A stretch of DNA of 8,613 bases. It comes from a virus. Taxonomy: Duplodnaviria; Heunggongvirae; Uroviricota; Caudoviricetes. Below, one piece after another: positions 2,171 to 8,613 of the stretch. The DNA is taken from the IMG/VR virus record IMGVR_UViG_2563366802_000009; one strand, written 5' to 3'. The notes below the pieces were generated by a model. The model saw only the letters and a list, made by a program, of their open reading frames with translations. It searched no databases and was not told the DNA's origin. The number at the start of each line of letters is the position of its first letter. The first letter of the stretch is position 1. A program made the position numbers and the translations under genes.

Positions 2171-2181
2171 GTGGAGTGGAT

Positions 2182-4554
2182 ATGGCAGCAGTAAAAATCT
2201 CAGGTGTGCTGAAAGATGGTGCGGGAAAACCAATACAGAACTGCACTATTCAACTGAAGGCAAAGCGTAACAGCACCACGGTACTGGTGAACACGGTGGC
2301 CTCTGAAAATCCGGATGAAGCCGGGCGTTACAGCATGGATGTTGAGTATGGCCAGTACAGCGTCATCCTGCTGGTTGAAGGTTTTCCGCCTTCACATGCC
2401 GGGACCATTACCGTCTATGAAGGTTCCAGACCAGGTACGCTGAATGATTTTCTTGGTGCCATGACGGAGGATGATGCCCGTCCGGAGGCACTGCGCCGTT
2501 TTGAACTGATGGTGGAAGAAGCAGCACGCAACGCTGAAGCCGCCTCTCAGAGCGCAGCGGCGGCAAAGAAATCCGAAACTGCAGCGGCATCATCGAAGAA
2601 CGCGGCGAAAACCTCAGAAACGAATGCAGCTAATAGTGCACAGGCGGCAGCGACCTCACAGACTGCATCAGCAAACTCCGCGACAGCAGCCAAAAAATCA
2701 GAAACCAACGCGAAAAACAGCGAGACAGCCGCAAAGACGAGCGAAACCAACGCAAAGTCCAGCCAGACGGCAGCGAAAACCAGCGAAACGAATGCCAAAG
2801 CCAGTGAAACTGCGGCAAAAAACAGCCAGGTTGCAGCAGCCCAAAGCGAGAGCGCGGCAGCCGGTTCTGCGACTTCAGCAGCTGGATCAGCAACTGCTGC
2901 GGCTAACAGCCAGAAAGCTGCGAAGACGAGTGAAACTAACGCAAAGTCCAGCCAGACGGCAGCGAAGACCAGCGAAACGAATGCCAAAGCCAGCGAAACT
3001 GCGGCGAAAAACAGCCAGGATGCAGCAGCCCAAAGCGAGAGTGCCGCAGCTGGTTCTGCAAGTGCGGCGGCTTCTTCTGCCACTGCATCAGCCAACAGTC
3101 AAAAAGCAGCAAAAACCAGTGAAACCAACACAAAGGCGAGCGAGACTGCGGCGACTAACTCGGCGAAAGCATCCGCTGCAAGCCAGATGGCTGCAAAAGC
3201 AAGTGAAGACGCAGCCAGAGAGTATGCAAGCCAGGCAGCAGAGCCGTATAAATATGTCTTACAGCCACTGCCTGATGTGTGGATACCGTTTAATGACTCG
3301 ATGGATATGATTACAGGATTTGGCCCGGGATATAAAAAAATAACAGTGCGCGATGATGTGGTCACTATACCATCCGACAAAATTGTCCCGTTTTCCCGCG
3401 CGAGTTCCGCGACCTATATCAATAAGTCCGGCGCTCTTACCATTGCAGAAATTAATGAGCCACGTTTTGAAAAAGAAGGGCTGTTAATTGAAGGGCAGAG
3501 AACAAATTACTTCACAAACTCAAACGCTCCGGAATTGTGGAATAAAAATCCAGGCCTGAAGATAAGCGAGACAAAAACCGATTCCAGGGGTTTTAAATAT
3601 GCAACGTTTACCCCAGAAAAATATTTAGATAGTTCTGGCTCATATGGAATTATATCAGGGGCAGCAGCAAATAAGATAGCGGTAGTCAAAAATGATGCAG
3701 TTACAATATCCTTTAGAGCAAAAGGGGATAATGTAAGATTTGCGGCTAGATTTGATAAAGGGGATTCGCCAGTTGCTGTAGCTGCCATTTTTATTGATAG
3801 CGCCACACTAGATACATTCACGTCTGGAGCAGATGCGTCTAATATTGCTGTGAAAAATGTTGTTCGTGACGGTGAGTGGGTTGCTGTAGAGGCTGTTTAT
3901 AAAGTAACAGACGACTCTACATATATTAACGGCGCCATTCTGATGTCAAACAAACTGGGTGCTAATTTTGATAAGACTAGTTTTATGGATGTAACCACCC
4001 CTCAAATAGAGCTAGGTTCTTGCTTATCATCATTTATTGTCACACCAGGTGTTCCTGCGACAAGGGCGAGTGATATGGTTATTTTTTCAACCAGAAATAA
4101 CATAAGTTCTGTCCCTTTAAGCTGTCTTGTTGAAATACATAAAAATTGGGACTCTACGCCAAATCAGTCCCCACGAATTTTAACCACTATTGGCGTGGCG
4201 ACTAATGATGAACAACTGGTATTTGCTTTCAGGACGCCTACAAGTCCGGATGTAGAACCTTTACCTTATGTTCAGTTTGGAGTGAGATCTGCATATCTTA
4301 GTCCATTTGTGAAGGCCGGGCGCAAAATGATTGCTGGTTTTGTCTGTAATAGCTCGACTGAATTTCGTTGCAGTTGTAATAGTTACCTGTCACCTGTTCA
4401 GACTTCGTCATGGAAGAATACCGGAGCTGCACATGAAATACGTATTGGGGGAACTTCTGCTGGAGGAGAACGTCACTTGTTTGGTCACGTTCGTAACCTG
4501 AGAATATGGCATAAAGAATTAACTGATGCGCAAATGGGGGAGAGTATTAAATGA
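2182..4554 (+). CDS. stf: Side tail fibre protein (Stf-like), mosaic: lambda-like N-terminus, repeat shaft, divergent low-GC C-terminal module
   Basis: N-terminus MAAVKISGVLKDGAGKPIQNCTIQLKAKRNSTTVLVNTVASENPDEAGRYSMDVEYGQYSVILLVEGFPPSHAGTITVYEGSRPGTLNDFLGAMTEDDARPEALRR matches lambda Stf from memory. Ala/Ser/Thr/Lys-rich 14-residue repeats follow (KTSETNAKSSQTAA...). The C-terminal ~520 aa is AT-rich and ends ...GHVRNLRIWHKELTDAQMGE, which resembles the C-terminal strand motif of concanavalin-A-like/LamG jelly-roll domains (inference). Start placed at ATG 2182 (GGAG 5 nt upstream) rather than the track's GTG at 2176. Confidence 0.85.
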   Translation: MAAVKISGVLKDGAGKPIQNCTIQLKAKRNSTTVLVNTVASENPDEAGRYSMDVEYGQYSVILLVEGFPPSHAGTITVYEGSRPGTLNDFLGAMTEDDARPEALRRFELMVEEAARNAEAASQSAAAAKKSETAAASSKNAAKTSETNAANSAQAAATSQTASANSATAAKKSETNAKNSETAAKTSETNAKSSQTAAKTSETNAKASETAAKNSQVAAAQSESAAAGSATSAAGSATAAANSQKAAKTSETNAKSSQTAAKTSETNAKASETAAKNSQDAAAQSESAAAGSASAAASSATASANSQKAAKTSETNTKASETAATNSAKASAASQMAAKASEDAAREYASQAAEPYKYVLQPLPDVWIPFNDSMDMITGFGPGYKKITVRDDVVTIPSDKIVPFSRASSATYINKSGALTIAEINEPRFEKEGLLIEGQRTNYFTNSNAPELWNKNPGLKISETKTDSRGFKYATFTPEKYLDSSGSYGIISGAAANKIAVVKNDAVTISFRAKGDNVRFAARFDKGDSPVAVAAIFIDSATLDTFTSGADASNIAVKNVVRDGEWVAVEAVYKVTDDSTYINGAILMSNKLGANFDKTSFMDVTTPQIELGSCLSSFIVTPGVPATRASDMVIFSTRNNISSVPLSCLVEIHKNWDSTPNQSPRILTTIGVATNDEQLVFAFRTPTSPDVEPLPYVQFGVRSAYLSPFVKAGRKMIAGFVCNSSTEFRCSCNSYLSPVQTSSWKNTGAAHEIRIGGTSAGGERHLFGHVRNLRIWHKELTDAQMGESIK
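2731..3059 (+). repeat. Two ~140 bp direct repeats (2731..2870 and 2920..3059) with a 189 bp period inside the stf shaft region
   Basis: By eye the copies differ at about 10 of 140 positions. The 189 bp offset is 63 codons, so both are in frame, each encoding ...KTSETNAKSSQTAAKTSETNAKASETAAKNSQ(V/D)AAAQSESAAAGSA. Confidence 0.8.
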
Positions 4555-6668: not shown

Positions 6669-6984
6669 AGTGAGACTCTATACGAAATTGGTGTTCATAT
6701 CATAATGCATCTCAGAAAATAATTTTGATTATTTTTGTGCATATTTGTATGTACACGTTCGAAAATAAACGAATGCGTATGCAACCCCGTAATTTTGGTG
6801 AGACCCAAAATCGATTTTGTGAAAAATGGCTTTAACTCGGTTTGTTTTTCGAGTTCCGGGCGGACTCAAGGAAGAAGAATAGTGTTGCGTGTTATTTTAA
6901 CCAGATTTCAAGTTGTTTGGTCGTGGAAAAGTGGAGCAAAATGTTGTTAAAGTGGAAAAATGATAAAAAAGTAAGTTTATTATA

Positions 6985-7218
6985 TTACATTTTACCATTT
7001 AAATTTTGGTTGTCTTTAAGAACTGATATCGCTGTTTGTAATAATTCTTTGTTATCCAGCCATGATTTTTTCTTTATGTTTCCTTCAATGTAATCAAGCA
7101 ATGTTCTGGTATTGATAGGTCTTCCCTGTTTTGCTACTTCCACTACAGCATCCGCTAGGATAATTCTTACTTCAGGAAGCTGCGCAGGGAACCACTTTAG
7201 GGTGTCTTTTGATTTCAT
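6985..7218 (-). CDS. ynaE: YnaE/YdfK-family prophage cold-shock-induced protein (77 aa)
   Basis: MKSKDTLKWFPAQLPEVRIILADAVVEVAKQGRPINTRTLLDYIEGNIKKKSWLDNKELLQTAISVLKDNQNLNGKM matches E. coli YnaE/YdfK from memory. Start placed at ATG 7218 (AAGGAA 7 nt upstream) rather than the track's ATG at 7251, which would add 11 residues. Confidence 0.8.
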   Translation of the reverse strand: MKSKDTLKWFPAQLPEVRIILADAVVEVAKQGRPINTRTLLDYIEGNIKKKSWLDNKELLQTAISVLKDNQNLNGKM

Positions 7219-7450
7219 GAAGATATTCCTTAAAATATTATTGATTTTCATTGCGATATTGTATGTCTGATTCAGGATATGTTGACTTATACATCGGTTT
7301 TGTCTGGGTTATTGGATATGCCAATCCCTAATTTTATTAGGGCATGACTAAAAATGCTGAATATGATAAGGAGAGATGTGATTATCAGTATGCTGTTCAT
7401 ATAACCTCGAATTAGTAATGTGTTATATATGATATAGTTGACAATTTTTA
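7219..7450 (-). promoter_or_regulatory. Probable promoter and long 5' leader of ynaE (very AT-rich)
   Basis: No ORF here; composition is strongly AT-rich with TTGACA/TTGTCA and TATA-like hexamers. Long leaders are known for cold-shock genes. No individual -35/-10 pair could be assigned. Confidence 0.3.
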
Positions 7451-7790
7451 TCTTGGGTGTTCTTAAAGTTCGTAGATAAACATTGTCGTTTCAGGTATAC
7501 AGGAATGCTAACAGGTGGCAGCAAAAATCAGGCGGTTTATGGCGCAAGCTGAAGCGGCAACTGCAAACTATCTTATGCAGAGACTCTACACGGATTGGGT
7601 TTAAAAGTATACATAGATAACAGTTTTTATCTGAAGAAGAAAAATATCAAGGTGATATAGCCTATATGCCTATGATGCGGAGGAATGAATGTGATGGGAG
7701 TGATGTATCTGAATAGTTGAAAAACCGCAGTCACGTCGTATGCAAGAACGTGCTGCGGTTGGTTTGACTTTGATTGAGACGTTTTGGAAT

Positions 7791-7850
7791 TTTTTTTTGT
7801 GGCAAAAATGGGGCAAAACGCTGCAAAAGGGGCAAAAAAGGGGCAAAAAA
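7791..7850. repeat. T9 tract followed by five helically phased G(G)GCAAAA(A) A-tract repeats (predicted intrinsically curved DNA)
   Basis: TTTTTTTTT at 7791..7799, then GCAAAA beginning at 7802, 7813, 7823, 7832 and 7843 (spacings 11, 10, 9, 11 bp). Confidence 0.7.
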
Positions 7851-8140
7851 AGAGTGGATTATCGTAGTTTATTGTTCTCGCTGATGATGTTTAACACATT
7901 GAAAAATAAGTAAAACACTTATGAGTCAGATAGTTGTGATTTTTGCCCTTACTTGTTCAGGTTGTATTGTTCTTTCTTACTAATTTCTTGATTTTGCGAC
8001 ATTTAAAAGCGACTCAATTCGTTATATGGCATCAGAAGAGTATGCGTCATGCCGGAACGCCCAGCATAAGAAATCTGATATAAAAAACTGTGGCGTGTAT
8101 GGTACGGATTAGAGGGGAAAATGTCAGCACATTTGCGAAA

Positions 8141-8171
8141 TGAATCAAAAAGCCCGCAGCAATGTGCGGGC
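8141..8171 (-). terminator. Rho-independent terminator of uspF
   Basis: On the minus strand GCCCGCA-CATTGC-TGCGGGC followed by TTTTTGATT, starting 8 bp after the uspF stop. Confidence 0.6.
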
Positions 8172-8178
8172 GTTAGTG

Positions 8179-8613
<435 letters not shown>

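Follow-up and report, generated by a model that had tools for sequence, protein, structure and literature searches.

A phased five-unit array in the P arm of the Rac prophage attachment site: likely arm-type sites for the integrase IntR

Introduction

The attachment sites of phages lambda and P2 are among the closest described systems to the one considered here. Lambda attP carries the arm-type Int sites P1, P2 and P'1–P'3, of which the P' sites are contiguous at about one helical turn, and sites for IHF lie between the arms and the core. In P2 attP, Int binds pairs of direct repeats in each arm. Rac, among the best-known cryptic prophages of Escherichia coli K-12, is the source of recET, kilR and ralR and is still able to excise. 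We analysed the right end of a Rac-type prophage in a window of 8,613 nucleotides (IMG/VR record IMGVR_UViG_2563366802_000009; positions are counted from the first letter of this stretch) and in particular a phased array of five short repeats at 7799–7852 on the plus strand. Located in the outer P arm of the Rac attachment site, this array likely provides the arm-type sites that the N-terminal domain of the integrase IntR would bind.

In the searchable literature the Rac attachment site is described as a 26-bp core only. The array had been picked out in an original prediction made from the letters of the window, which read a T9 run and five phased G-rich units with A tails as a recipe for curved DNA and proposed several roles, one of them within the prophage attachment site, as an arm-type or architectural element. 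Here we place the array within attP, follow its repeated word through both arms and through related integrases, and weigh the reading as arm-type sites against its alternatives.

Results

A phased array in the P arm of attR

Directly after a T9 run (7790–7798) the window carries five units on the plus strand, GTGGCAAAAAT (7799–7809), GGGGCAAAAC (7810–7819), GCTGCAAAA (7820–7828), GGGGCAAAAAA (7829–7839) and GGGGCAAAAAAAG (7840–7852). Each opens with a hexamer that is a candidate IntR arm-type slot on the same strand: GTGGCA in slot 1 (7799–7804), GGGGCA in slots 2 (7810–7815), 4 (7829–7834) and 5 (7840–7845), and the degenerate GCTGCA in slot 3 (7820–7825). An A4–A7 tail follows each of the five slots. 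The sequence GCAAAA starts at 7802, 7813, 7823, 7832 and 7843, with spacings of 11, 10, 9 and 11 bp, and the mean of 10.25 bp agrees with the predicted spacing of about 10.3 bp. Five copies of GCAAAA were observed within 60 bp, where no 60-bp stretch in 2000 first-order Markov simulations of the window exceeded 3. The word GGGCAAAA is present in 4 copies in the window against 0.54 expected, a number reached in none of 200 shuffles, and Tandem Repeats Finder reports an 11-bp array of 4.8 copies at 7801–7849. The G+C content of the array, counted from the window sequence, is 46%. The five phased units thus stand where they were predicted, to within a base.

The window covers the right end of a Rac-type prophage, with tail fibre genes, pinR, ydfK/ynaE and ynaM, beyond which lies uspF. 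The array is about 573 bp upstream of ynaE (ydfK/ynaE ends at 7218), close to the 580 bp first estimated, and about 330 bp from uspF (which ends at 8179) rather than 290 bp. No open reading frame (ORF) of at least 60 amino acids crosses it, as had been claimed, though ORFs of 57 and 58 amino acids overlap it. A search of the ynaE–uspF interval against 5426 complete E. coli genomes divides the interval into three parts. The first, 7252–7762, is common to the Qin ydfK/ynfT region; the second, from about 7772–7793 rightward, is common to other prophages at the same insertion place; and the third, 7953–8178, consists of the 5' end of ttcA and the ttcA–uspF spacer of prophage-free genomes.

Comparison with K-12 and with Rac-free genomes had been suggested as the way to find the attachment junction, and it did so: alignment of attR of the window with K-12 attR, three unrelated ttcA prophages and one empty site places the boundary between phage and bacterial DNA at 7953. 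Here begins the common core (7953–7978, plus strand; 26 bp, TTGTTCAGGTTGTATTGTTCTTTCTT), the crossover region of attL, attR, attB and attP, which emerged when attR was compared with K-12 attL and with the attB of a genome that lacks Rac. The same 26 bp are carried as an att site annotation in the record of phage Rac-SA53. To the left of the core, the P arm of attR (7772–7952, plus strand), the phage-derived half of attP, is a block conserved among otherwise different ttcA prophages. The array lies 103–154 bp left of the core, at the outer edge of this block. Because the junction is at 7953 and the conserved block starts at about 7772, the array sits in the phage-derived P arm.

Conservation among ttcA prophages

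The P arm was found in 1465 of the 5426 genomes, and in 1439 of these the match extends over 80% or more of the query. All seven independent ttcA prophages that were compared have five units, and the register is the same throughout. GGGGCA is unaltered in slots 4 and 5 of all seven and in slot 2 of six, the O157 prophage having GGGACA there; substitutions are confined to the A tails, slots 1 and 3, and the T run. The array is therefore not a strain-specific expansion absent from related prophages. The T run reads T7CG in K-12, T8 in strain 573 and T4–5CG in other ttcA prophages, and it is missing from SPF_0923, where homology starts exactly at slot 1. Since it is variable or absent, the T9 run, which had been listed as part of the element, does not belong to the conserved module.

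Unit number departs from five in two cases. Strain 573 (L176) has six units through an 11-bp duplication, and ETEC1747 (L177) has two, a 31-bp deletion having joined slot 2 to slot 5. Close relatives do not vary freely in unit number, since these two rare variants (6 and 2 units) were the only ones among the records inspected. Both are natural cases for asking how many arm sites suffice.

Both arms of the intact attP carry the word

Our search for IntR in viral contigs returned 80 near-identical integrases, mostly on contigs that end 3 bp past int, and only IMG/VR contig L048 was informative. This contig crosses the excised junction. The hairpin, the T run and the five-unit array come first, then 100 bp up to the core, and after the core 47 bp, TGGGGCAAAT TGGGGGCAAAC and the intR stop codon. 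The word thus recurs in both arms of attP, as five units in P and as the pair TGGGGCAAAT TGGGGGCAAAC in P'. An identical P' pair is found in attL of K-12 and of Rac-SA53, between the intR stop and the ttcA start. Phage vB_EcoS-683R6 was considered as a free phage with IntR and set aside, since its record proved to be that of a prophage between bacterial sequences, without an attP.

IntR is a protein of 411 amino acids. Residues 5–69 match Arm-DNA-bind_2 (PF12167) over the full profile (E = 3.9e-26), and a Phage_integrase catalytic domain lies C-terminal to this domain. PF12167 is the mark of the IntBPP-1 subgroup of arm-binding tyrosine recombinases, for which the 'putative integrases' of the BPP-1, Stx2a and Gifsy-2 phages are listed as members (PMC8138268). 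A sequence search of the PDB with IntR returned relatives of the catalytic domain only and no solved arm-binding domain of the IntR family. The Rac excisionase, XisR, is a DUF1233 protein.

The word travels with the integrase family

Searching phage genomes with tblastn identified relatives of IntR in 933W-type Stx phages (~43% identity), Klebsiella phage RothC (42%) and phiCTX (31%). In each of these, where int adjoins an intact attP, tandem units are found in both arms. The 933W-type attP has four units and a degenerate third slot in P, GGGGCGCTATT GGGGCAAAGTG (TGGTTGTTT) GGGGCATATTT GGGGCAAAAAAG, and two units in P', GGGGCACGTCT GGGGCACGG. RothC has two units in P (GGGGCATGGAT GGGGCATTC) and two in P' (GGGGCATGGAT GGGGCAAAG). 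In phiCTX the arrangement is again 2+2, with units of another word, CTGGGAACA, that read CTGGGAACACT CTGGGAACAAAC in P and TTGGGAACAAA CTGGGAACGAGG in P'. A second intact attP of closer kinship, in record L118 (Int 60% identical), has the five P slots GGGGCAAATTA GGGGCAAAACA TGATAAAAA GGGCAAAAAAA GGGCATT and two units in P', and in a further record, L139, the P arm is arranged 3+2. The design of a pair, a degenerate third slot and a second pair is common to the P arms of Rac, the 933W-type phages and L118.

A wider scan with one genome per species covered 80 loci, whose integrases are 42–100% identical to IntR, in Escherichia, Enterobacter, Hafnia, Serratia, Brenneria, Pantoea, Yersinia and other genera. 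An exact GGGGCA-N4-6-GGGGCA pair stands just past the end of Int homology at 52 of the 80 loci, and a relaxed GGGGCA-like pair lies between −20 and +60 bp of that end at 66. Elsewhere in the 327 kb scanned the relaxed pair has 4 matches on the same strand and 0 on the other, and three of the four are the P-arm arrays of L118 and L139. The arm-type or architectural role suggested for the array in the attachment site is thus supported by its place within the conserved P arm, by the word in P' and by the way the word tracks the integrase across genera.

Predicted curvature of the array

In a dinucleotide wedge model the array is the peak of predicted curvature of the whole 8.6-kb window, reaching about 25.6 degrees per turn where the window averages 6.7 (standard deviation 4.0), and shuffling its 60 bp lowers the value to 15.0 ± 1.7 degrees per turn; with the wedge parameters used (Bolshoy; AA-wedge set) these figures are qualitative only. 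In the same model, and with the same qualification, Rac-type arrays reach 22–26 degrees per turn, L118 23, the 933W-type 19, L139 11, phiCTX 7.5 and RothC 7. Curvature varies among relatives while the GGGGCA words stay, so the conserved property is the G-rich word and not the bend. The proposal of strongly curved DNA accordingly holds in silico for Rac and fails as a conserved property, relatives ranging from 7 to 23 degrees per turn.

Published XisR binding and the array

Liu et al. 2015 found by electrophoretic mobility shift assay (EMSA) that XisR shifts a 294-bp 'AttR' fragment and not a 291-bp 'AttM' fragment (PMC4632033). We mapped the primers of that study to the window, where AttR spans about 7783–8076 and AttM about 7662–7952; the lengths match the published 294 and 291 bp, and both fragments contain the whole array. 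As AttM remained unshifted although it includes every unit, XisR alone does not bind the array on the published evidence, a conclusion that amounts to one negative EMSA from the literature. XisR binding in the published assay depended on sequence right of 7952.

Discussion

The Rac attachment site compared with lambda and P2

The arrangement at Rac, with tandem sites 10–11 bp apart that stand about 50–80 bp (P') and 100–150 bp (P) from the core and with candidate IHF-like sites in between, resembles those of lambda and P2 attP. With lambda it shares short words other than the core in both arms, 50–150 bp from the crossover, and an integrase whose N-terminal domain is of an arm-binding kind; the P arm, once the phage is integrated, is found at attR, away from int. 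The Rac matches to IHF sites between arms and core occur at chance frequency. The differences are in the parts. The Rac integrase belongs to PF12167/IntBPP-1 whereas the N-domain of lambda Int is PF09003, the word is GGGGCA(AA) rather than the lambda arm-site word, and the P arm has five contiguous slots in place of two separated sites. The Rac units, moreover, have the same orientation in both arms, and their A-tract tails give predicted curvature.

P2-type sites (P2, 186, phiCTX) share with Rac the tandem pairs of direct repeats at 10–11 bp spacing in the P and P' arms. In phiCTX, whose Int is 31% identical to IntR, just this arrangement is seen with CTGGGAACA. Rac, the 933W-type phages and L118 differ from the P2 type in that the P-arm pair is expanded to five slots, and the Rac recombination directionality factor (RDF) is XisR/DUF1233 rather than Cox.

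Arm-type sites and alternative explanations

Taken together, the position of the array in attP, the word in both arms, the arm-binding domain of IntR and the conservation of the word across the family are established here, and we infer from the sequence comparisons that IntR binds the units; which sites serve in which reaction, and what IHF and curvature contribute, is treated below and is of the same conditional kind. We consider it likely that the array constitutes arm-type sites for the IntR N-terminal domain, and there are points that weigh against this. Our literature searches turned up no IntR footprint, EMSA or mutagenesis on these units. Five contiguous units go beyond the customary one or two pairs, excisionase filaments also typically have tight phased arrays, and a two-unit variant exists in ETEC1747. 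Slots 1 and 3 depart from GGGGCA, which leaves the count of functional sites uncertain. Matches to the IHF consensus are at chance level (12 in the window against 10.7 expected), so that IHF involvement is inferred. Finally, the lone negative XisR EMSA could be a technical failure.

This last point bears on the alternative that the array is a platform for XisR, which would polymerise on the phased P-arm repeats and bend attR for excision. The array shares with the filaments of other RDFs (lambda Xis at X1-X1.5-X2, Xis of mycobacteriophage L5, the Cox boxes of P2) its head-to-tail units, one per turn, its place in the P arm and, by prediction, a bend, and as with the lambda Xis sites the helically phased units stand in the arm remote from int. 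XisR also does bind a fragment that contains attR (PMC4632033). RDF sites, however, occupy one arm only, whereas the Rac word is paired in the P' arm beside int as well, occurs in both arms of the intact attPs of relatives and follows the integrase, its pair at the int 3' end tracking that gene across 80 loci; and XisR left unshifted the 291-bp AttM, which holds the whole array and the P arm to 7952. The word in both arms and the XisR-negative AttM together argue against an excisionase platform, to which we assign a low probability. Comparably improbable, in our estimate, is that the array is mainly curved DNA that recruits H-NS, Fis or IHF, silencing the prophage end or modulating excision, with GGGGCA incidental. 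H-NS-bound DNA, for example upstream of silenced promoters, has phased A4–A7 tracts and a strong predicted bend as this array does; the array has the highest predicted curvature of the window; and H-NS, according to Hong et al. 2010 as cited in PMC4632033, controls the excision of Rac alone among nine K-12 prophages. What is conserved across lineages, however, is the G-rich word rather than the A tracts or the curvature, which differs between homologous arrays and leaves those of RothC, L139 and phiCTX near-straight in the wedge model (7–11 degrees per turn). A further pair of the motif stands in the non-curved P' arm, a G+C content of 46% is not H-NS-like, and the context is a recombination site and not a promoter. 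The H-NS/IHF/Fis nucleation or silencing element of the original prediction gained no support, yet a nucleoid-protein role may coexist with arm-type sites as a secondary layer.

Two further explanations carry even less weight. That the array is a non-functional slippage expansion, or part of a small gene (a 'hypothetical protein' at 7740–7913 in the annotation of the Prokaryotic Genome Annotation Pipeline, PGAP), gains something from the changes of unit number to six in strain 573 and two in ETEC1747, and from the 57-amino-acid ORF that PGAP places across the array in some strains. Against this stand five in-register units in seven independent prophage lineages, a P arm carried by 1465 genomes, and the five-slot layout in 933W-type phages and L118, whose integrases are only 43–60% identical; the ORF, for its part, starts in a hairpin that other lineages lack, is of low complexity and would be shifted out of frame by the changes in unit number. 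We hold either version to be highly improbable. Iterons of a replication origin or a partition site, finally, would account for the tandem-repeat look and for that only. No replication or partition gene is nearby, the neighbours being ydfK/ynaM, ttcC/uspF and, in the attP form, intR, and the distribution of the array follows the integrase and not a replicon; we regard this explanation as having next to no chance. The comparison with iterons in the original prediction applies loosely, in the sense of a tandem protein-binding array, and lacks any replication gene or origin context.

A proposed Rac intasome

Under the favoured reading of the array as arm-type sites, the word recognised by IntR would be about (T/A)GGGGCA(A)(A). 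With one copy of the word per helical turn, the bound domains would all sit on the same side of the helix, and the five slots could be read as two pairs (1–2 and 4–5) that flank the degenerate slot 3. IntR would place its N-domains on the array and its core-binding and catalytic domains on the 26-bp core, while an IHF-type bend near 7892–7904 would fold the P arm back onto the core. The P' pair, which in the lysogen lies in attL between the intR stop and ttcA start codons, would do likewise on the other side. Both arms together would form the intasome that recombines attP with attB upon integration and, with XisR, attL with attR upon excision. In part the phased A tracts follow from the site consensus GGGGCAAA itself, one copy of which stands every 10–11 bp, and, on the wedge model, they probably give the arm of the Rac lineage an intrinsic curvature that would ease wrapping.

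More speculatively, the array might, through its A-tract tails, double as a curved H-NS target, with H-NS and IntR competing on attR, and, as a separate matter, (T/A)GGGGCA at 10–11 bp spacing might give the whole PF12167/IntBPP-1 subgroup, 933W-type phages included, its first arm-site consensus; we rate these extensions as rather unlikely. If true, competition between H-NS and IntR would explain the Rac-only control of excision by H-NS, so far without a mechanistic explanation, and the consensus could be used to predict the attP boundaries of PF12167/IntBPP-1 phages.

The kind of element is ordinary, most likely the arm-type sites of a heterobivalent tyrosine integrase, and the concept of how such sites work is unchanged by our findings. 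Searches of the literature for the motif, for ttcA, 933W or Stx arm-type sites and for DUF3596 found no description of these sites, and the sequence and the five-slot design appear to be undescribed there for Rac and for the PF12167 subgroup. With the array in the P arm and its word in P' and in relatives, a testable map of the Rac intasome becomes available, as does a candidate arm-site consensus for the large and barely characterised PF12167/IntBPP-1 subgroup, which mobilises 933W-type Shiga-toxin phages. A GGGGCA pair at the 3' end of int and a multi-unit array at the far end can moreover serve as a signature of prophage ends, and the reading as arm-type sites flags a spurious 'hypothetical protein' annotation.

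Accessory sites, hairpin and small ORFs

Between array and core lies an IHF-like site (7892–7904, minus strand), TTTCAATGTGTTA, one mismatch from WATCAANNNNTTR. Its word ATTGAAAA is invariant in ttcA prophages and is found at the matching place in the 933W-type attP. A perfect IHF consensus, AATCAAGAAATTA, stands just right of the core inside ttcC (7981–7993, minus strand), and at the place matching it the P' arm of the L048 attP has AATCAACAAATTA. A single inverted copy of GGGCAAAA (7941–7948, minus strand), 5 bp from the core, is kept in most ttcA prophages, though STEC367 and O157 carry mutations in it, and could form part of a protein site close to the core.

A stable hairpin followed by U5 is predicted at 7722–7761 on the minus strand (−20.1 kcal/mol, z = −4.5), some 10 bp beyond the left end of the P-arm block at 7772. 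It adjoins the array in the intact attP of contig L048 too (1920–1960). Because in attP the hairpin is downstream of intR, it could end or process intR read-through there, a candidate terminator or processing site whose possible role we liken to that of lambda tI/sib. A promoter and terminator scan of 7250–8250 found no promoter-like site in the array and the uspF terminator only, the hairpin having been missed by this simple scan because its loop exceeds 8 nt. An RNA element on the array was also considered and rejected, an Rfam scan of 6900–8613 having given nothing there. In the same region CssrB, a Shigella chromosomal small RNA, has a sub-threshold Rfam match at 7620–7757 on the plus strand (27.8 bits against a gathering threshold of 76, E = 0.003) that ends at the hairpin, and upstream of ynaM/ydfK there may be a gene for a small RNA.

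The 57-amino-acid ORF (7740–7913, plus strand) is annotated by PGAP as 'hypothetical protein' WP_001157925.1 in SLK172 and other strains, and not in K-12. As a gene it was rejected: its product is of low complexity (…WQKWGKTLQKGQKRGKKRV…), its start lies within the lineage-specific hairpin, and the 11-bp and 31-bp unit changes would break its frame. The annotation is almost certainly spurious.

Flanking genes and records

On the B' side of attR, ttcC (7953–8003, minus strand; ATG at 8003–8001) is the orphaned first 17 codons of bacterial ttcA. With Rac inserted, phage DNA stands in place of the region upstream of ttcA and of the first codons of that gene, as seen in K-12 attL (L007, 3683–3757). 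There the new ttcA start codon is preceded, at about 20–45 bp, by the two candidate arm-type units of P', and 51 bp separate it from the intR stop. Binding of IntR to the P' pair could alter ttcA expression.

The SPF_0923 record (L008, ON032529.1, 'Salmonella phage SPF_0923'), described as a 'complete phage genome', has uspF, ompN, a nifJ-like pyruvate-flavodoxin oxidoreductase gene and sitABCD inside; given these bacterial genes, it represents a prophage region with bacterial flanks. Its sit operon directly adjoins the arm-site array. Records L117 and L118 are labelled Streptomyces sp. NPDC002677 and Sphingomonas sp. NPDC019816, and both have an enterobacterial-type ttcA 5' end, an IntR homologue 60% identical to IntR and identical P' arms; the labels probably reflect contamination or mislabelling. 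Having an intact attP, L118 derives from an excised or tandem form.

Elsewhere in the window, nested tandem repeats with periods of 21, 42 and 189 bp, the last in at most 2.3 copies, occupy 2682–3154 inside an ORF of 792 amino acids (2176–4554) for a tail fibre.

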